From: Bacteroidia bacterium | GTDB taxonomy: Bacteria > Bacteroidota > Bacteroidia > CAIKAF01 | Length of the DNA stretch: 64,000 bases | Direction: 5' to 3' | Assembly: GCA_030427255.1 (NCBI GenBank) | Contig: JAUHWY010000001.1 | Span: 48,141 to 112,140, forward strand | Shown here: piece by piece, positions 4,399-40,080 of the stretch | How the letters are laid out: the number at the start of each line of letters is the position of its first letter | How positions within the stretch are numbered: the stretch's first letter is position 1 | Made by a program: the position numbers and the translations under genes | Notes under the pieces: model-generated | The model's database searches: none | The model's input: the letters and a program-made list of their open reading frames with translations, nothing else | Told to the model about the DNA's origin: nothing

Positions 4399-4558
4399 GG
4401 CCCTACGGGCTGCTTGCTCCAAGCTGTGTCGTAAGGCCCACAAAACACCAACGCAGGGCCGGGGCTTGCTGCGCGCCGCCGCGGCCCTGCGGGTGCTTTT
4501 GGGGCCTTTCTTCCACAGGCTTTCCACAGCATCCCTGGCCGACCCGGCCCGCAGGCCC
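4399..4558 (-). repeat. GC-rich intergenic element, copy A (reverse orientation relative to copy B)
   Basis: ~75% GC island in a ~46% GC background. Its reverse complement aligns with copies B and C (GGATGCxGTGGAAAGCC ... GCGCGCAGCAA core). It generates four spurious overlapping ORFs. Confidence 0.6.
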
Positions 4559-31339: not shown

Positions 31340-31665
31340 CCTACTGAGACAGTTGATACGTTGCGTTTTCAAGACGAAGTCCCCGACCGAAGCGTCAGGG
31401 AAGCAGTCCCTGACCGAAGCGTCAGGGAAGCAGTCCCTGACCCAAGCGTCAGGGAAGCAGTCCCTGACCGAAGCGTCAGGGGTTTAAGGCGCAGGCAAAT
31501 AGAAAGGCCTCTGACGCTTCGGTCAGGACAGGCCGGAGTTTACTAGTTGTAAATGAGGACCCTGAGATTTGCCCATAACGCAGACCCTGGCGTTCCTGTC
31601 AGGGTTTATAATCCCGACCGCAGCGTCAGGGCAGGATTGCCGTCAGAATAGCATCGCATCAACAG
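31340..31665. repeat. REP/BIME-like composite cluster with a 4-copy 27-bp tandem array (GACCGAAGCGTCAGGGAAGCAGTCCCT, 31385-31483)
   Basis: Tandem units seen directly. The 3' half (31520-31660) is homologous to 51840-51990, with a shared ...CAGAATAGC terminus. Confidence 0.6.
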
Positions 31666-33111: not shown

Positions 33112-33185
33112 GGTCCCATAGCTCAGCTGGATAGAGCAACTGCCTTCTAAGCAGTAGGTCTCAGGTTCGAATCCTGATGGGACTA
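33112..33185 (+). tRNA. tRNA-Arg (anticodon TCT)
   Basis: Acceptor GGTCCCA/TGGGACT, D-arm GCTC/GAGC, anticodon stem ACTGC/GCAGT with loop CTTCTAA, T-arm TCAGG-TTCGAAT-CCTGA. Confidence 0.9.
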
Positions 33186-33443
33186 CTTTTGTTTTCTGTA
33201 AATTGCTGATTTACAGGTATTGGGAAACTTGCCTTTCTGATTTGTAGACACATTTGTAGACACATTTTCGGGAATTGCTCCAATTTGCGCTACTTGCTGC
33301 CGGCTCGTGTTGCTCTTTTTTATGGTGTCGGTTTAGTTGGCTACCGGCATCCAATCGGTTTTCCCTTGTCGGGTGCATACTCGGTGCCGGTCGCTATTTC
33401 TCCCTACTTCTTCTGTAATGTAATCTTTATGGAGGTAGGCTAT

Positions 33444-34454
33444 TCAATTGCAAAGTCCTTTTATCATTTCGTAAGCATCAGCGAATCCTAGCTCTCCAGC
33501 TTTACTCCAGTCCCAACAAGCTCCGTTTTTGTCTCCGAGATTGTATTTTGAGACACCTCTGTTGAAATAAGCATCTTGATACCCAGGGTCTAGTTCTATA
33601 GCCTTGTTATAATCTGCTATTGCTCCTCTGGAGTCTTCGAGCCTCTCCTTTGCCGCACCTCTGTTGTGATAAGCTTCTTTATACCCAGGGTCTAGTTCTA
33701 TTGCCTTATTACAGTCTGAAATAGCTCCTCTATAGTCTCCGAGATTGTACTTTGACGCACCTCTGTTGTAATAAGCTTTTTTATACCCAGGGTCAAGTTC
33801 TATTGCCTTGTTATAATCTGCTATTGCTCCTTTATAATCTCCGAGGCTTTCCTTTGCCGTACCTCTCATGAAATAAGCGTTTTCATGCCCAGGGTCTAGC
33901 TCTATTGCCTTATTACCGTCTGAAATAGCTCCTCTATAGTCTCCGAGAGTGTACTTTGCTATACCTCTGCTGTAATAAGCGGCTACATAGGAAGGGTTTA
34001 GCTCTATAGCCTTGTTAAAGTCTGCTATTGCTCCTCTGGAGTCTCCAAGTTTGCCCTTTGCCCCACCTCTTATGAAATAAGCGTCTACATACAAAGGGGC
34101 ACGCTCTATTGCCTTATTACAGTCTGAAATAGCTCCTCTATAGTCTCCGAGATTGTACTTTGACGCACCTCTGTGTTCATAAGCTTCTAAATACCCAGGG
34201 TCTAGTTCTATAGCCTTGTTATAATCTGCTATTGCTCCTCTAAAGTCTTCAAGCCTCTCCTTTGCCCTACCTCTTATGAAATAAGCACCTTTATCCCCAG
34301 GGTCTAGTTCTATAGCCTTGTTAAAGTCTGCTATTGCTCCTCTATTGTCTCCGAGATTGTACTTTGCCAGACCTCTGTCAAGGTATTCTTCCGCAGTCTG
34401 ACTAAATACATTGCTACTCCAAAAAAGCAAAAAAATAAAAAATACGTTTTTCAT
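33444..34454 (-). CDS. Secreted TPR-repeat protein (nine near-identical 34-aa TPR units)
   Basis: Signal peptide and a repeated ...GAIADYNKAIELDPGY...AYFxRG... unit. The DNA is internally repetitive. Confidence 0.8.
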   Translation of the reverse strand: MKNVFFIFLLFWSSNVFSQTAEEYLDRGLAKYNLGDNRGAIADFNKAIELDPGDKGAYFIRGRAKERLEDFRGAIADYNKAIELDPGYLEAYEHRGASKYNLGDYRGAISDCNKAIERAPLYVDAYFIRGGAKGKLGDSRGAIADFNKAIELNPSYVAAYYSRGIAKYTLGDYRGAISDGNKAIELDPGHENAYFMRGTAKESLGDYKGAIADYNKAIELDPGYKKAYYNRGASKYNLGDYRGAISDCNKAIELDPGYKEAYHNRGAAKERLEDSRGAIADYNKAIELDPGYQDAYFNRGVSKYNLGDKNGACWDWSKAGELGFADAYEMIKGLCN

Positions 34455-34539
34455 TTTAGTTCGTTATTGGTTAAAAACTCCTTTAGGTTATTTGCAATAG
34501 GCAGTTCCGCTCAATTATTGATGCCATGTCGTTTACTTT

Positions 34540-34845
34540 TTATGGATTGGCTGCTTCTTGTTTGTGTACTTGAAAAACCACTTCCCCCGGCCATGTCTGC
34601 GTCGGGGTATTGTCGCTTTCGGCTGCCGGTGGGGGTGTTACTAAGACCAAAAGCTTAACCATGATTTCAAGGTATGCCTTGGGGTTCGTTTCTGCCAAGG
34701 TATTGAGGCTTGCCTCCATTTTTTCGCCTTGCCCCTGCAAAGCTTGGCCGATTAACTTTCGGGCTTGCTCGGTTAGCTTGTTGGGGACTCCTTTTCGGGT
34801 TCCGCTTTTTCCTGCCTTGGTTCCGGTGTCGGAGTTGAATTGCAC
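34540..34845 (-). CDS. Hypothetical protein (101 aa), island cargo
   Basis: ORF only; no motif. Confidence 0.3.
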   Translation of the reverse strand: MQFNSDTGTKAGKSGTRKGVPNKLTEQARKLIGQALQGQGEKMEASLNTLAETNPKAYLEIMVKLLVLVTPPPAAESDNTPTQTWPGEVVFQVHKQEAANP

Positions 34846-35021
34846 TTTCCGTTACTTTGGTTTGTGTGGGTGTACGTTACCGGGAATGGGTTGTTTCAAA
34901 ATAAATAGCCCAATGATTGACTTTTCCCCTCTACTTGAACGGTGAATAACGCTCATTCAATCTTTAGGCTTGGCCTGCCAAAAATAGGAAATTCCTAGAT
35001 TTAATTAAATGCTTTGGAGCT

Positions 35022-35453
35022 ATGGATAAATTAACAGACGATTGGGTTCAGCTTACAGACGGTCGGGAACCGATTTACTTTTACCTTGTCGAGGAACATG
35101 TTACTACCTTTGGAAAAGATGAGGGTAGGAATGAGCCCATTAGTTACGCTAAAGAATTTAATGGACCCAATTTGCGAAAGTGCAAAGAAGATGCAGAAGC
35201 ATACTATTGGGAAAGGTTAGAGGGCTTAGAAAAGGCCGGTTCCTACTTTTTGCCATTTGCAAGCCATTCAAATTTTGAGTTTGGCAAAAACGCTGCATTT
35301 TCTATTTATCTATCTTTAGTTGAGTACTATGATGAAGACGATTTTTTCCTTCACACTATTTTGGGGGATGATGAAGAGGAAATGGTCGAGGCTAGGGAAG
35401 CAGAAGCGTACATACTTAGCGAAAGGGAGGATGAAGAGGATGAAGAGTTCTAG
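35022..35453 (+). CDS. Highly acidic 143-aa protein with a poly-Asp/Glu C-terminal tail (ends EREDEEDEEF); the only plus-strand island gene
   Basis: ORF flanked by 22-bp direct repeats CGGTGAATAACGCTCATTCAAT (34940-34961 and 35515-35536). Confidence 0.5.
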   Translation: MDKLTDDWVQLTDGREPIYFYLVEEHVTTFGKDEGRNEPISYAKEFNGPNLRKCKEDAEAYYWERLEGLEKAGSYFLPFASHSNFEFGKNAAFSIYLSLVEYYDEDDFFLHTILGDDEEEMVEAREAEAYILSEREDEEDEEF

Positions 35454-35531
35454 CTTTTTTCTAAAATAGCACATAGGTAGGTCCGGTTTTTGGTTGTTTC
35501 CCCCCACTAGTAAGCGGTGAATAACGCTCAT

Positions 35532-36482
35532 TCAATAGCTCGAAGAGCTCGCCCAATGGTTGGCCATTTTCGCATCCTTTAGGCTTGGGAAACAAATCGC
35601 TCGGAGCTCGTTTCTTATTTCGTTTGATGTTTGCGCCCAATGCACTAAGCCGGCATCCTGCAAACGGTTGTTTAGCTTGGTGCGCTCCCTTCTGAATTGC
35701 TGTGGGTTTTCCCGTGAAAGGGAAATGAAATACCGGGGGTTGGTCCATTCTTTGTTCCATGTGGCCACCTCGGACCGGGCCTCTTTTTCTTGCGGCACAA
35801 ATAACACCTCGTTTAGGCTTTCCTCTATCTTATGCCTCAACTTAGATAAACGGCTCGGGTTGGCTAAGTCGGCAAAGGTTGAAATACCCATTTGGTTTAG
35901 TTGTCTCATTTTGGAATAATGCCTTTCCCATCGAATGAGCTTTTCCGGGTCCGTATTTTGCACCTCCATCGCTGTTTCTATTTCCTTGGTGTACTGCCTA
36001 CCTTTTGCGTAAAGCTTGTCTCCAAACTCGCTTTTGGTGGCCACTACTCCAAACTTCCGATCGCTTAACATCGCCTCAAATGGTGTGGATTTATGGAGGA
36101 ACGCTCCTTTCAAGATTTCTTGGGCCCTGTGGCTTGTCCGCACGTTCGCCCCTGCTTCTAAGTTCTCTAATTGGATTTCGTGCGGTGAAACGCCCAAATG
36201 GTCGGAAATGGAAATGAGGCCTTCCAAAAGTTGTCGAAAATCCAAGGGCTTCCAGTTCGCCCCACCTTGTTGGTGCTTATGTATGGAGCCGGAAAGGATT
36301 ATTCTTGTGGGGCTGCCGGCAGCAGGGAAAAAGCCCTTGGCCTTCATGGAGCCAAAATAATACTCCTGCCAAGGGCTTATTTCGCCTGTGCGCTCATTCA
36401 CCACCATTTGCCATTCTATGGCCTCGCTTGCTTCTTTAGGAAACGCTAGGGGGTGAATACTAGCTTTTAGAAAGTCTATCAC
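35532..36482 (-). CDS. Putative replication initiation protein, Rep_trans-like (weak)
   Basis: 316 aa; the segment GDKLYAKGRQYTKE...LIRWERHYSK loosely resembles the RIYNKKQE...HLWRVEIELK region of rolling-circle Rep_trans initiators. Context is int/xis/regulator. Confidence 0.35.
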   Translation of the reverse strand: MIDFLKASIHPLAFPKEASEAIEWQMVVNERTGEISPWQEYYFGSMKAKGFFPAAGSPTRIILSGSIHKHQQGGANWKPLDFRQLLEGLISISDHLGVSPHEIQLENLEAGANVRTSHRAQEILKGAFLHKSTPFEAMLSDRKFGVVATKSEFGDKLYAKGRQYTKEIETAMEVQNTDPEKLIRWERHYSKMRQLNQMGISTFADLANPSRLSKLRHKIEESLNEVLFVPQEKEARSEVATWNKEWTNPRYFISLSRENPQQFRRERTKLNNRLQDAGLVHWAQTSNEIRNELRAICFPSLKDAKMANHWASSSSY

Positions 36483-36514
36483 TATCTTTGATTGCTAGTC
36501 GGTTCAAACGGCTA

Positions 36515-36874
36515 TCAAATTGCACCGAAGAGGCCCATTTGTTGGGCCTTTTCTTTTTTATGGCCGTAGTGCTCAACCGGCAAACCGGTTTCTCGCTCCG
36601 TGTCGATTTTGTTCTCTACACGAACAAGCCCTTCTTTTTTGAGCTTGTTTAGGACGCTGCATAAAGAGGACTCTCTAATTTTGAGAACTTCTTGCAATTT
36701 TAACCTTGAAAACGTGGCTTCCGGGAAAGTCCCTAGGAATTGCAAAATTCTCTCTTTATGCTTTAGGTGCGCAAGCTCTCTCGCATAGGTACGGTAAGCT
36801 TCTAGGGAGTTCCGGTGCATCCTGTGGTTTGGGTGCTTAATTCCCCTACCTAGGGTTTGGTTATCGCTCTTCAT
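36515..36874 (-). CDS. Winged-helix DNA-binding transcriptional regulator (119 aa)
   Basis: wHTH-like segment ...RILQFLGTFPEATFSRLKLQEVLKIRESSLCSVLNKLKKEGLVRV...; 4-nt overlap with the xis-like gene. Confidence 0.5.
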   Translation of the reverse strand: MKSDNQTLGRGIKHPNHRMHRNSLEAYRTYARELAHLKHKERILQFLGTFPEATFSRLKLQEVLKIRESSLCSVLNKLKKEGLVRVENKIDTERETGLPVEHYGHKKEKAQQMGLFGAI

Positions 36875-37140
36875 CGCTTGGCCCTCCCTTTTAATTGTTG
36901 TTCAATCTCGGAGCGCAAGAATAGGACCCTTTTCCCCATCCGGTAGCCTTTAATTACTCCCTGCTTTTCCAGTTTGTTAATGGTCGGGAAACTGATTTTG
37001 AATTGTGCCCGGACTTGGTCCCGGGTCAACCACTTTTCAGTTTGTTGGCCGCTTTCGCTTTGGCCTTGTTCTTTGATGTGCTCGTGAATTTCGAGAACGG
37101 CGTTCTCAATAACTCGCAAACGGTTTTCTAGGTTTTGCAT
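36871..37140 (-). CDS. xis: Excisionase/MerR-type HTH DNA-binding protein (Xis-like)
   Basis: LTRDQVRAQFKISFPTINKLEKQGVIKGYRMGKRVLFLRSEI matches the excisionase HTH_17 pattern. Confidence 0.6.
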   Translation of the reverse strand: MQNLENRLRVIENAVLEIHEHIKEQGQSESGQQTEKWLTRDQVRAQFKISFPTINKLEKQGVIKGYRMGKRVLFLRSEIEQQLKGRAKR

Positions 37141-37184
37141 AATTTAAAAATTGATTTAATGCAAAGCTATTACCGCTCAAAGTC

Positions 37185-37237
37185 AGAAACTTAGGAAACT
37201 TAGGGAGGAAAACTTAGGAAACTTAGGAAACTTAGGT
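37185..37237. repeat. Five tandem iteron-like 9-10-bp repeats, (G)AAACTTAGG
   Basis: Seen directly; located between the orf315 stop and the xis start. Confidence 0.65.
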
Positions 37238-37247
37238 TTTGTTTTAT

Positions 37248-38195
37248 TTAGCTAGATAATAGATTGTTTATCTTTATCAAATAGCCCTTATTTTTCTTTA
37301 GTGGTGAAGTTTCTAGTTTTCGCAAAAGTCTAATAACGGTTCTCTCCGTTACGCCCTTACCGCCACCCTCGTAGTTTATTAAATACTCGCCTATTCTGTC
37401 TAAAGCTGCATTATCTTTAACTAAGTCAGAAACTATACCTGCATTACTCTTAATTCCGTCCAATTTTTTAAGGCCTGTTTTCTCTGTCATAAAATCATAC
37501 CCATTCAATTTCAATTCATTTTTGAAATCATAACCAGTAATCCCACAGAACAAAATGCAAAGGTTTTCCTTGCTCCGGCCGCCCCTCAACCATTCAAAAA
37601 ACTTTTCCCATAATCCATCATTTGATTGAGTTTCCGGCTTAGAATCTTCCCTTCCTTCTTTGTCGGGGTCAACCTCATTTGGTCTAGGTACAACTTCCTT
37701 GGGTTCATTATCGGGGGTCCACCTACTAATTGTTATGCCTTGGTCACTACTATTCAAACTATTTTGTAATTCAAAGAATTGCTCCCATTGGTATTGTTGA
37801 CCAAAGCCAAGGGTTTTCTCTAATTCTTTGAGCCTAGCATGGAATAGTTCAAAGTCAACCGCCCTATCATGGCTCCCAAAAAAACTAATGTACTTTTGGG
37901 CCCAATCCTTTTGCCTTTGAATGGCTTTTTGTACCAGTCTCAACCCTTTTTCATTATTGTTTCCATACTTCCCAATTGTGGCCTCTATTTCCTCTCCAAG
38001 CTTCCTTTGCTTTTCGATTATTTCAGCCTCCCAATCGGTGTTCTTATAAATGGGGAGTATCATTTCTTGCCACCAATCTTTGTTGACCCTAGCCACTTTA
38101 AACGGAGCCCGGGTCGGTTTATAATCCTCGGGGTTTAATAGAATGGTCCAACCTTTAGGGGGCCTTTTTAATTTTAACGGTTCCTTCCTTTTCAT
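37248..38195 (-). CDS. Hypothetical island protein (315 aa), translationally coupled to the integrase
   Basis: 4-nt overlap with the int stop; no recognisable domain. Confidence 0.5.
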   Translation of the reverse strand: MKRKEPLKLKRPPKGWTILLNPEDYKPTRAPFKVARVNKDWWQEMILPIYKNTDWEAEIIEKQRKLGEEIEATIGKYGNNNEKGLRLVQKAIQRQKDWAQKYISFFGSHDRAVDFELFHARLKELEKTLGFGQQYQWEQFFELQNSLNSSDQGITISRWTPDNEPKEVVPRPNEVDPDKEGREDSKPETQSNDGLWEKFFEWLRGGRSKENLCILFCGITGYDFKNELKLNGYDFMTEKTGLKKLDGIKSNAGIVSDLVKDNAALDRIGEYLINYEGGGKGVTERTVIRLLRKLETSPLKKNKGYLIKINNLLSS

Positions 38196-39487
38196 ACCTG
38201 TGCGCTTAATTCCTTGTACTTCTCTTCAAAAGTCGCAAGTATCATTTCGCTATGCTCCCTAGTGGTCATTTTGATGTAATTAAGAAACACCTTCTCCGAA
38301 CTGTGCCCGGTTATGGCCATAATACTAATGGCCGGCACTCCCATTTTGTATAAGTTGGTGGCAAAGGATCTCCTAGCTGTATGGGAACTGATAAAGTGAA
38401 ACTTAGGCCTTTTTATTTCCTCAACTTCAAAGCCTCTATTCTTGGTTGCCTCTACAGTTTCTACAATACCGGCAAGCTTCCCAATTTCCTTTATAAGGCT
38501 GTTTAGGCTTTGGTCAGGCATGTATGGCAATTCAAAGTCGTACTTTTCTAGGATTTTCTTGGTAGGTGAAAACAACGGAATTTCCACTTCGCTATCGGTC
38601 TTTTGCGCCTTTATTACTATAAACTTACTGTCTATGATGTGCTTTTTCTTAACTCGCTTAAAGTCGGAAATGCGTAAACCAGTCCAACAACCAAAAAGGA
38701 AAAGGTCCCGGGCTTTCTCGTATCTTGGCAAATGCGAAAGATTGAGGCCTTCCAGTTTCTTTAATTCATCCAAGGAAAGAAACACGCTATGAACCTTCTC
38801 CTTTATTACCTTGAACTTTTTGTCTTTGAAAATTTCGTTCTTTGAAATTCCCTCTTCGTATGCTGCTCGAAGTATTGCCTTAATGTTTTTGATGTGTTTC
38901 CCTATGTTATTTGGAGTAAACCTTTTCCCGGTGTCCCTGCCTAGTCTATCCCTGCCTTTACAATAAGCTACAAAAGAGGCGTACCAAGCCATGTCGAAGT
39001 CCTCAAAACCAATGTTCGGTTGATACTCTTCTAAAAGCTTTTTCGTTTGCTGATAAGAGTTCACAACCGAATTTTGACTTAATGGCTTGCCGGCAGCACT
39101 AAGCCTTAGTTTGTGCCCTTCCATGAAATGGTCCACAAATGCAAAAAAGCTCTTGGGCGCAAGCTTTGATCCGGGTGCTTGTTCTTGTTTTTTAGGGTTT
39201 AGGAGCTCTCTAAACTCGTCAAGGGTTGGCTCTATGCCTAATTGCCCAAAGGGCTTGTAAAGTTCGGCTATTGCTTCCTTATAAGCTTCTAATCGCTCGT
39301 TTTTGTAAAATGCGTCAGGGTCGCTCCTTCTTACCTTTTGCTGTTTCTCGTTCCAGTCCTTTACCAAAACGGACTCTCCTACATTCTTGGTAAGCTTTTT
39401 ATAATCCCAACGAATTACGGCTTGTATTGACGCTTCATCGCCCTTGGTTCTGGGCCTCAAATAAAAGTGCACGGTCATAACTATCAA
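38192..39487 (-). CDS. int: Tyrosine-type site-specific recombinase/integrase
   Basis: C-terminal catalytic region ...HTARRSFATNLYKMGVPAISIMAITGHSSEKVFLNYIK... (R..H..R..Y) and an N-terminal SAM-like domain. Confidence 0.9.
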   Translation of the reverse strand: MIVMTVHFYLRPRTKGDEASIQAVIRWDYKKLTKNVGESVLVKDWNEKQQKVRRSDPDAFYKNERLEAYKEAIAELYKPFGQLGIEPTLDEFRELLNPKKQEQAPGSKLAPKSFFAFVDHFMEGHKLRLSAAGKPLSQNSVVNSYQQTKKLLEEYQPNIGFEDFDMAWYASFVAYCKGRDRLGRDTGKRFTPNNIGKHIKNIKAILRAAYEEGISKNEIFKDKKFKVIKEKVHSVFLSLDELKKLEGLNLSHLPRYEKARDLFLFGCWTGLRISDFKRVKKKHIIDSKFIVIKAQKTDSEVEIPLFSPTKKILEKYDFELPYMPDQSLNSLIKEIGKLAGIVETVEATKNRGFEVEEIKRPKFHFISSHTARRSFATNLYKMGVPAISIMAITGHSSEKVFLNYIKMTTREHSEMILATFEEKYKELSAQV

Positions 39488-39904
39488 ATTGCATAGCTAA
39501 GTTAGCACATTTGAAATTTGTGGACACATTTGTGGACATATTTTCTTTATTTCATTTTACTTTAAAGAGTCTTACTTAATCGATAATCCACTAATTACAA
39601 GGGGTGCAAAACTAAAAGGCCTTTATTCTCAATCCTTTTAAAATTGAAAATACGAATCCTGATGGGATCACTAAGAAAGTCCACCGAAAGCCTTTAATGT
39701 TCCAAACCTTGGGAACTAGAGCATGCTTGCATGTTCATAGTTCCTAAGGTTTGGAACGATTTGTTGCCAAAGGCAGCAAATGGGCTTTCGGAATTCGGAG
39801 CATACAGGATCAGGCACAACTCCTGATGAGAATAGAGCGGTCGGGATTTTGGAAAGTAGCCGCAATCTCTCCCTCATTTCAAAAAGACTTAGAGAATTTT
39901 AAAT

Positions 39905-40080
39905 TAAAAGCCCGCAGCGTATGCCATCTTATTAGAATGGCCCCCCTGCCCGGCGGAGGGGCCGCTGCCACCAAAGCCCGCAGGGGCAGGACTGAGGAGG
40001 CCCCCCTCAGTTATGGGGGGGACCCCGCAAGCCTTGCCCCTGCGTGGCTTTGGTGGTAGCGCACCGGAGTATGGGCAGGA
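39905..40080. repeat. GC-rich intergenic element, copy D (divergent; long imperfect hairpin)
   Basis: CTGCCACCAAAGCCCGCAGGGGCAGG pairs with CCTTGCCCCTGCGTGGCTTTGGTGG. It is ~70% GC and shares AAAGCCCGxAGG-type blocks with copies A-C. Confidence 0.4.

Follow-up and report, generated by a model that had tools for sequence, protein, structure and literature searches.

Phage morons, a concept of Hendrix and Juhala, are extra genes that lie between two genes which are adjacent in related phages. In T4-type phages, the PeSL cassettes or mini-circles consist of ORFs of unknown function between short direct repeats of regulatory or junction sequence, and recombination between the PeSL repeats explains how such ORFs are gained, lost and relocated and predicts mini-circles that carry them (Arbiol et al. 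2010, PMC2839356). The locus analysed here, in a window of 64 kb (the whole stretch of DNA examined), invites comparison with both. We consider it moderately probable that an element of about 6.5 kb acquired two cargo segments, that one of these, carrying the gene ORF143, was inserted into a conserved block by a recombination route that duplicated its target, and that ORF143 is an accessory moron rather than a DNA mimic.

Judged from its sequence, the window holds an integrative element in the 3′ end of a tRNA-Arg gene, about 6.5 kb in length. The integrase domains, the tRNA-Arg, an att repeat matching at 18/20 positions and circular forms identify it as a tRNA-integrating tyrosine-recombinase element, and its features outside the region of the ORF143 segment are as follows.

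33112..33186, + strand: tRNA-Arg(TCT), from ARAGORN and Rfam; its 3′ end, 33168-33187 (CGAATCCTGATGGGACTACT), is one att repeat of the island
33240..33269, again at 39516-39545: tandem ATTTGTAGACAC repeats, candidate integrase arm-type sites near both island ends
33375..34548, − strand: second cargo segment with a TPR-repeat gene (33444-34454), missing in the circular relatives L007 and L008
34540..34845, − strand: 101-aa ORF with an RKGVPNK motif, weakly matching phrog_11043, present in L007 and L008
36515..36874, − strand: 119-aa winged-helix protein with weak MarR-like matches, its central part only ~54% identical to L007
36871..37140, − strand: 89-aa HTH_17 / excisionase-like protein
37186..37236: five 9-bp iterons CCTAAGTTT (gene strand), upstream of the excisionase-like gene
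37248..38195, − strand: 315-aa core protein with no family match
38192..39487, − strand: tyrosine integrase with Arm-DNA-bind_5, SAM_5 and Phage_integrase domains
39653..39672: second att repeat CGAATCCTGATGGGATCACT, at the far end of the island

The element core of about 4.8 kb comprises the integrase, the 315-aa protein, the excisionase-like HTH protein, the winged-helix protein, a 316-aa orphan and the 101-aa ORF, to which the window copy adds the TPR gene and a segment of 553 bp. The ATTTGTAGACAC tandem repeats are 100% conserved in L007, L008 and L036. Both island ends are connected in the circular contigs of the relatives L007 and L036, each of which has a 141-bp terminal overlap (k=141 assemblies), and among very close relatives of the element core there are circular assemblies of 4.77 and 5.29 kb. 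No flanking repeat comparable to that of the 553-bp segment was found for the TPR cargo segment, just an imperfect match of ~8 bp. Small ORFs resembling the 101-aa ORF also occur in L011 and L020.

The region of the 553-bp segment is organised as follows.

34912..34961, − strand: intact copy of a conserved non-coding block, reading on the gene strand ATTGAATGAGCGTTATTCACCG followed by TTCAAGTAGAGGGG...
34940-34961: left direct repeat, formed by the right 22 nt of the intact block
34962..35514, + strand: inserted segment, 553 bp, 40% GC, missing in L007, L008, L036, L009 and L011
34962..34973: 12-mer CTTTAGGCTTGG, abutting the left repeat, with a second copy at 35577-35588 within the 316-aa gene
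35022..35453, + strand: ORF143, a small acidic, cytoplasmic alpha/beta protein of 143 aa by prediction, with the C-terminus EREDEEDEEF
35427..35447, + strand: tandem repeat of GAGGATGAA (x2.3), encoding a lineage-specific acidic tail
35515..35536: right direct repeat, where the conserved block is interrupted directly after ..CACCG
35532..36482, − strand: 316-aa core gene ("Rep-like"), intact, from an orphan family of 4 clusters

A preliminary description of this DNA had reported the pair of 22-bp direct repeats, and they are indeed exact and the only such pair in the 64 kb: the 22-mer CGGTGAATAACGCTCATTCAAT is found at 34940-34961 and 35515-35536 where no copies are expected, allowing up to three mismatches adds no further match, and none of 100 shuffled sequences (0/100) contained one. 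The right repeat had been described as overlapping the last codons and stop of the neighbouring gene; it does take in the stop codon (35532-35534), together with just 2 nt of the final codon, and its remaining 17 nt are non-coding. The recurrence of the sequence after the left copy some 40 bp beyond the right copy was also seen correctly, the second copy of the 12-mer lying 40 bp past the right 22-mer. This pair of 12-mers implies that the duplication originally spanned at least 74 bp and that its left copy subsequently lost 40 bp. As had been proposed, the left repeat and its 12-mer are demonstrably a copy of the end of the 316-aa gene (3′) from which a part has been deleted. An independent public assembly, Logan ERR3428543 (L032), is 100% identical to the window across 34314-39682, including both repeats and the insert, and the structure is therefore not an assembly artefact of the window.

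The insert differs from the adjoining gene in GC content (40% vs ~48%), and ORF143 is the only gene on the + strand, the seven other island genes all being on the − strand. A search of Rfam found no family inside the insert, and neither a donor nor a circular intermediate of it was found. The sequence just within the insert (B′) bears a marginal likeness, ~60%, to the downstream flank of the target. The ORF143 ATG is preceded, 19 nt upstream, by a TAGATTTA motif, and no sigma-70-type promoter or terminator flanks the gene, a consensus that does not apply to Bacteroidota.

The empty site is preserved in related elements. L007 and L008, near-identical metagenome elements, have a single 22-mer and none of the 553 bp, such that L007 420-4582 corresponds to window 39659..35515 and L007 4561-4911 to window 34961..34611. 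Identity to L007 is 96-100% on both flanks of the insert, equally high on either side of the 22-mer, and the flanks of L008 match to the same extent (96-100%). The outgroups L009, L010, L011 and L036 each carry one contiguous, uninterrupted TTCACCGTTCAA block, a sequence that is invariant in the alignment of L007, L009, L010 and L011. Because close and distant relatives alike carry one unbroken copy, the difference reflects an insertion in the window copy rather than a loss elsewhere. The breakpoint, TTCACCG/TTCAA, falls within the non-coding block that is conserved best across this family of elements, just past the stop codon of the 316-aa gene. Beyond the block, the relatives vary, L036 having a 151-aa lipoprotein-like gene, L011 an 84-aa ORF and L009 nothing.

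On this comparison, the 553-bp segment is a recent insertion, with target-site duplication, into a tRNA-integrating element, and ORF143 is likewise a genuine accessory ("moron") gene insertion, as it separates sequences that are contiguous in the close relatives L007 and L008. The six contigs of other members of the element family (four distinct relatives: L007/L008, L036, L009/L010 and L011) have no ORF143. The empty sites thus bear out the proposal that ORF143 is an inserted single-gene cassette. Relatives lacking both the gene and the repeats had been named in advance as evidence against that proposal; the gene is absent in the relatives and one copy of the repeat is kept, as insertion predicts.

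The insertion may have come about as follows. The segment would have landed in the conserved non-coding block directly behind the 316-aa coding sequence, duplicating at least 74 bp of target at first, of which 22 bp are still identical, and the distal copy would later have lost 40 bp. The most likely route, we infer, is short-homology recombination resembling a Campbell-type single crossover of a small circular intermediate. Other members of the ORF143 family appear to show the same geometry, the gene lying between duplicated copies of a stop-linker-start junction. Two further ideas were considered and dropped: use of a pseudo-att site by the island integrase, because the 22-mer is unlike the island att core, and a chimera of two lineages joined at the 22-mer, given the equally high L007 identity on both sides.

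Alternatively, two related elements may once have formed a tandem array or cointegrate, one partner already having ORF143 downstream of its 316-aa gene, and later deletions would then have taken away almost all of one copy and spared the 12-mer and 22-mer as a short pseudo-3′ end. The duplicated and deleted gene end fits such an origin, and circular relatives that could dimerise exist. Duplicated integrase 5′ fragments upstream of the homologue gene in L001, L021 and L038, and att-like repeat arrays in L003 and L015, are further points in its favour. However, it requires at least three events, the other family contigs lack ORF143, and the uniform identity to L007 across the 22-mer gives no sign of two parental lineages. 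A tandem remnant is therefore unlikely, though it fares best among the alternatives.

The preliminary description called the 316-aa gene "Rep", a label that searches of Pfam, PDB, phage and plasmid collections and hhalign comparisons did not uphold. A profile search of 5.8 billion proteins recovered only the same three relatives, and the protein had no match in PDB, phage, plasmid or IMG/VR collections. At E<=10, Pfam gave neither Rep_trans (PF02486) nor Phage_CRI (PF05144), the sole match being DUF7022 (E 0.18), and hhalign against M13 gpII and pT181 RepC returned a probability of 0.2%. By eye, the protein and M13 gpII have in common an N-terminal MIDxL, an SxxxKxxQGxN-like stretch and an (L/V)xYxK stretch. 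The conserved block itself was not found in IMG/VR and contains no significant hairpin (best z-score −2.2, in the right copy and on one strand only).

If the conserved block were nevertheless a nick site, on which the 316-aa protein acted as relaxase or rolling-circle initiator, faulty initiation or termination, or a strand transfer, could have brought the cassette in at that point, as in illegitimate recombination at the nick sites of rolling-circle plasmids. The breakpoint lies exactly within the most conserved non-coding block beside the gene, the relatives are small circles, and the likeness to M13 gpII seen by eye points the same way. Against this stand the failed family, structure, phage and plasmid searches, the hhalign result and the want of a convincing hairpin in the block, and the separate array of five 9-bp iterons could equally be the origin. 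Capture at a nick site is thus improbable.

The product of ORF143 is strongly acidic (pI 4.16; D+E = 39 vs K+R = 13; net −26), and its length, its C-terminus EREDEEDEEF and its orientation opposite to all other island genes are as first described. Its homologues comprise 31 close sequences and ~176 clusters by profile search, and a net negative charge is common to the entire family (pI 4.3-5.0, net −8 to −17). No match to ORF143 was found in Pfam (E<=0.1), PHROG, NCBIfam, PADLOC or PDB sequences, or by tblastn against phage and plasmid collections. The predicted structure, a confident model (pLDDT 78.7, pTM 0.73), is an alpha/beta fold. The family, previously undescribed, is one of small, net-negative proteins predicted to be well-folded and of alpha/beta type.

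This acidity had suggested a DNA mimic of the Ocr/ArdA type, which would resemble DNA in its acidic surface and tail and thereby inhibit type I restriction enzymes. The negative charge of the family, the location of the gene on mobile elements and the L015 homologue, which adjoins a type I HsdR-like gene, are in keeping with that suggestion. However, the acidic tail is missing in 31/31 close homologues, which end in ..VLKxKGLL or similar, and in the window copy it looks like a local GAT/GAA duplication. Among 92 family members, Pfam at E<=0.01 gave no ArdA (PF07275), Ocr (PF08684) or Antirestrict/KlcA (PF03230), and PHROG gave no match to ORF143 either. The comparison of a predicted structure with DNA mimics, proposed in the preliminary description, was run, and the alpha/beta model matched neither Ocr, ArdA nor any other known structure in a fold search of libraries other than those of AFDB. 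What the family conserves is mostly a set of aromatic and hydrophobic motifs of the core (YFY, FGKNAAFS), not acidic surface patterns, and L003, whose DNA around the homologue is ~88% identical to that of L015, has no restriction-modification neighbour. The DNA-mimic reading is thus decidedly improbable. Our best guess is instead that ORF143 acts by binding a protein of the host or of a competitor, which may be a defence component, and inhibiting it; a looser accessory role, perhaps in anti-defence, is possible.

Returning to the insertion itself, ORF143 might be ancestral and have been lost from the relatives by recombination between the 22-mers. Direct repeats do favour deletions of this kind, which would leave a product exactly like L007. 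However, the single unbroken block is found in four independent lineages, including relatives whose 316-aa protein is only 50% identical, the insert differs in GC content, and the duplicated pseudo-3′ end itself needs a gain event, all of which make an ancestral gene very improbable. A non-autonomous (MITE-like) transposon or integron-type cassette with target-site duplication is hardly credible, for although the insert is short and flanked by direct repeats and the island encodes a tyrosine recombinase, the duplication (22 bp, originally at least 74 bp) far exceeds those made by transposases, the best terminal inverted repeat of 15/20 nt is at about chance level for 700 bp, the candidate pair at 34978/35474 is at chance level, no attC-like or significant hairpin was found at the insert ends, the integrase is not of integron type (TIGR02249 17 bits vs a cut-off of 265) and the 22-mer does not resemble the att core.

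The distinct homologue loci placed so far (22/22) all lie in Bacteroidota genomes, in metagenome contigs or in a single viral contig, and where the flank is long enough they resemble mobile elements. The surroundings of the family genes are integrative elements with tyrosine or serine integrases, primase/helicase modules and prophage ends. The family gene usually lies beside an integrase or at an element end, no constant gene partner was found across the loci, and DNA similarity between loci ends ~25 bp from the ORF. Significant flanking repeats are present in L018 (45 nt), L020 (29), L022 (24) and L005 (14-17), and in about half of the homologue loci a flanking repeat is no better than chance. 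L020 is a second filled site: the junction TAACCACTTAAAGCATAAAGGACAAATG has one copy on each side of its ORF and is single in the empty counterparts L001, L005, L012 and L023. The ORF thus lies between repeats of a recurring junction sequence in L005, L018, L020 and L022, whereas the repeat in the window is a different, non-recurring sequence. Because the window 22-mer is not the linker motif of the other loci, the mechanism may differ between loci.

From these loci one could propose that ORF143 founds a new family of inhibitors, active in anti-defence or host takeover, which spread as a one-ORF cassette among Bacteroidota integrative elements, satellites and prophages by mini-circle excision and re-insertion at short junction repeats, a counterpart of the T4 PeSL cassettes. 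Taken as a whole, this proposal is quite doubtful.

Read as an insertion, the locus is a clean, recent, base-pair-resolved case of cargo pick-up by a very small mobile element. Current databases describe neither the small acidic protein family of ~176 clusters, placed so far only on Bacteroidota mobile elements and repeatedly a movable one-gene module, nor the family of 4.8-kb integrative/circular elements with orphan core proteins. If ORF143 acts in anti-defence, the way it spreads as a repeat-bounded module would usefully model how such genes pass between elements; otherwise, it is an ordinary moron.

Among the closest known systems are the NBU-type small integrative mobilisable elements of Bacteroidota and phage satellites (int, HTH_17, primase), with which the element shares an Arm-DNA-bind_5 tyrosine integrase, an excisionase-like HTH_17 protein, a tRNA 3′-end target and cargo near the element end; unlike them, it has no recognisable relaxase or primase, and its 315-aa and 316-aa core proteins are orphans. 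ArdA and Ocr are, like ORF143, small, strongly acidic proteins of mobile elements, but ORF143 has no similarity to them in family or fold, its tail is not conserved, and its conservation lies in the hydrophobic core. Integron gene cassettes are also single-ORF units that are thought to move as circles and to insert beside a recombination site; however, attC, attI and IntI are absent here, and what is repeated on either side is the target, not a site carried by the cassette. The pattern in L005, L018, L020 and L022 matches that of the PeSL cassettes, although the repeats there are stop-linker-start junctions of Bacteroidota elements (..AAGCATAAAGGACAATG), and the window repeat is another sequence again, derived from the conserved block that follows the 316-aa gene. 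As in the phage morons, the window carries a single extra gene of deviating composition and orientation that is precisely absent between the same flanks in close relatives, but its host is an integrative/circular element of ~4.8 kb rather than a tailed phage, and a long duplication of the target encloses the insert.

ORF143, a 143-aa acidic protein ORF, lies in an island of ~6.5 kb inserted at the 3′ end of a tRNA-Arg(TCT) gene, with the following features:

33168-87 and 39653-72: att repeats
near each island end: tandem ATTTGTRGACAC repeats
minus strand: genes for a TPR protein, a 101-aa ORF, a 316-aa protein, a winged-helix protein, an HTH_17/excisionase-like protein, a 315-aa protein and a tyrosine integrase
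34940-34961 and 35515-35536: copies of the 22-mer direct repeat CGGTGAATAACGCTCATTCAAT
34962-34973, immediately after the left 22-mer: the 12-mer CTTTAGGCTTGG
35577-35588, inside the 316-aa gene and 40 bp beyond the right 22-mer: second copy of CTTTAGGCTTGG
35022-35453, plus strand: ORF143, the single ORF of the 553-bp segment between the 22-mers

The preliminary description had reported the 22-mer pair, and both copies were found in place, with no third copy within the 64-kb window when up to three mismatches were allowed; dinucleotide-preserving shuffles yielded matches in 0 of 100 cases. The left copy had been read as a deleted duplicate of the 3′ end of the 316-aa gene, which is borne out by the 12/12 match of CTTTAGGCTTGG, a non-chance match at that position, so that the left copy is the duplicated gene end minus 40 bp and the original duplication spanned at least 74 bp. 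The right copy was said to overlap the last codons and stop of this gene; the stop codon is indeed included, but only 2 nt of the final codon. ORF143 does lie, as described, on the strand opposite to every other island gene. An independent public assembly (Logan ERR3428543, L032) is 100% identical to the window over 34314-39682, showing that the repeat and insert structure is real and not an assembly artefact.

Only three relatives of the 316-aa protein were found among 5.8 billion sequences. The related contigs L007 and L008 (88% overall identity) match the window from 39659 to 35515 and then run straight on at 34961 to 34611, possessing a single 22-mer and lacking the 553 bp altogether; beside the insertion site, the identity to L007 is 96-100% on either side in 100-bp windows. 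These empty sites prove that the ORF143 segment is an insertion, confirming and sharpening the earlier view of a cassette. The GC content of the insert is 40%, vs. ~48% in the adjacent gene, and this lower value, together with the single-copy outgroups, shows a gain in the window and not a loss in the relatives.

The ends of L007 overlap by 141 bp (k=141 assembly), giving a 4770-bp circle in which the two island ends are joined. The attP-like junction core of the circles (L007 ~395-420, L008 ~4443-4470) is GAGTCCGCTCGGGACC and not the tRNA-Arg 3′ end, suggesting from sequence that their target may be another tRNA gene. A further circle, L036 (5288 bp, core 94.6% identical), carries a single 22-mer and, ~28 bp further on, a different cargo, i.e., a 151-aa lipoprotein-like gene that is likewise on the opposite strand. 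The 316-aa proteins of L009/L010 and L011 are just 50-52% identical to that of the window; L009 is integrated in tRNA-Cys and cargo-free, and the cargo of L011 is an 84-aa ORF. In all relatives, the stretch following the stop codon is the most conserved non-coding DNA of the family (GAATGAGCGTTATTCACCG-TTCAAGTATAG on the gene strand, with TTCACCGTTCAA invariant). In the window this block is whole at the left, distal copy only, the gene-proximal copy being interrupted directly after CACCG. The interval from the conserved block to att is the variable cargo region of this element family.

Several further features of the region were observed. The segment 33375-34548 is a second cargo insertion, absent from the circular relatives L007 and L008 and with no clear flanking repeat; it contains the TPR-repeat gene (33444-34454), built from 102-bp units (~8 copies, 76% matches). 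Five 9-bp iterons, CCTAAGTTT (gene strand), at 37186-37236 between the 315-aa and excisionase-like genes, are kept in L007 and L008 and may function as an operator or as an origin of replication. The central part of the winged-helix gene (36560-36760) is ~54% identical to L007 between flanks of at least 93% and looks like an exchanged specificity module; the integrase is likewise mosaic (63-90%). The 11/12-identical sequences GCCCAATGATTG (34908-34919) and GCCCAATGGTTG (35551-35562) bracket the conserved block, with a spacing of 68 bp when the site is empty, and may be binding sites; in L036 the pair is only in part conserved. Outside the island, a 27-bp tandem repeat (3.9 copies, 96% matches) occupies an intergenic or small-ORF region at 31378-31481, and nested inverted repeats immediately beyond the island (39689-40061), with a sub-threshold Rfam match to Clostridiales-1 (33 bits vs. 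a cut-off of 48), may be a structured RNA or terminator.

The insertion in the window came with a target duplication. A single crossover with a small circle, or with some other homologous intermediate, across a short shared sequence, would produce direct repeats of precisely the shared segment, and such an event is proposed here. That a tandem or cointegrate copy decayed to leave the ORF143 segment is plausible, since homologues elsewhere are surrounded by integrase 5′ fragments and att-like arrays; however, this route requires more events and the ORF143 gene occurs in no sister element, making it rather unlikely. Capture of the segment by the 316-aa protein at a putative nick site is more doubtful still: the breakpoint position is suggestive and the protein resembles M13 gpII by eye, but every formal test of a "Rep" identity was negative, and the earlier label "Rep-like" is unconfirmed. 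A transposon model breaks down over inverted repeats and duplication length, and an integron model over attC and integrase type.

ORF143 has a pI of 4.16, a net charge of -26 and the C-terminus EREDEEDEEF. Its 31 close homologues are 49-58% identical over the full alignment (54-63% by local BLASTP), and when 1.84 billion representatives were searched with a profile, 176 clusters were recovered (118 below 1e-10); among the 150 matches listed, most are stand-alone proteins of ~100-165 aa. No Pfam match was found in the 92 family members scanned, nor did ORF143 itself match PHROG, NCBIfam, PADLOC or the phage and plasmid collections, nor the family profile any PDB sequence. AlphaFold gives a confident model (pLDDT 78.7, pTM 0.73) in which a four-stranded sheet packs on two long helices. 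The acidic tail had led to the proposal of a DNA mimic. The family is acidic throughout (pI 4.3-5.0), yet in the alignment with close homologues the tail is confined to the window copy, where it falls on a local GAGGATGAA repeat, and the conserved residues cluster in the aromatic/hydrophobic motifs EPxYFYxV and FGKNAAFS. The specific DNA-mimic argument therefore fails, and that identity is not supported; the conservation pattern is the one that would be expected of a folded domain with a binding or enzymatic role. More broadly, a function as an inhibitor or in anti-defence is conceivable, though unsupported.

Homologues occur in genomes of Flavobacterium, Chitinophagales, Mariniphaga and other Bacteroidota, as well as on metagenome contigs and a single IMG/VR contig; wherever the flank is long enough, the surroundings resemble a mobile element. 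The loci are arranged as follows:

immediately 5′ of a tyrosine integrase: L005, L012, L013, L019, L023, L025, L038
5′ of a large serine recombinase: L027
3′ of an integrase: L020
at a primase/helicase island end: L003, L015
at a prophage end: L016

Short ORFs consisting of the integrase Arm-DNA-bind_5 domain alone lie upstream of the homologue and full integrase (L001 7268-7648, L038 343-714, L021), being either tandem-copy remnants or stand-alone arm-binding proteins. In L003 (5400-7440) and L015, arrays of ~50-nt att-like repeats (..TAGTAACTAACTATTCAATAA..) and short TTGCGCA/TTGCGAAT repeats around the homologue suggest repeated integration and decay at a single site.

ORF143 is a recently gained accessory ("moron") gene. 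It represents a new and uncharacterised family carried by Bacteroidota mobile elements, and its host, a small integrative/circular element, likewise has a core built of orphan proteins. DNA similarity between loci frequently ends within ~25 bp of the ORF, e.g., in L012/L020 and L018/L022 (both 87%). A scan found significant gene-hugging repeat pairs in the window (22 nt), L018 (45 nt, 42/45), L020 (29 nt), L022 (24 nt) and L005 (14-17 nt). The junction TAA-CCACTTAAAGCATAAAGGACAA-ATG is present once in L001, L005, L012 and L023 and twice in L020, flanking the ORF; L020 and the other four form a second filled/empty pair. In these elements the linker CATAAARGAYAATG also sits before the integrase and before the gene downstream of it. 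In T4-type phages, short regulatory repeats of PeSL cassettes recombine, shuffling ORFs and releasing mini-circles (PMC2839356), and these cassettes share the geometry of the repeat-flanked loci of the ORF143 family, e.g., L020.
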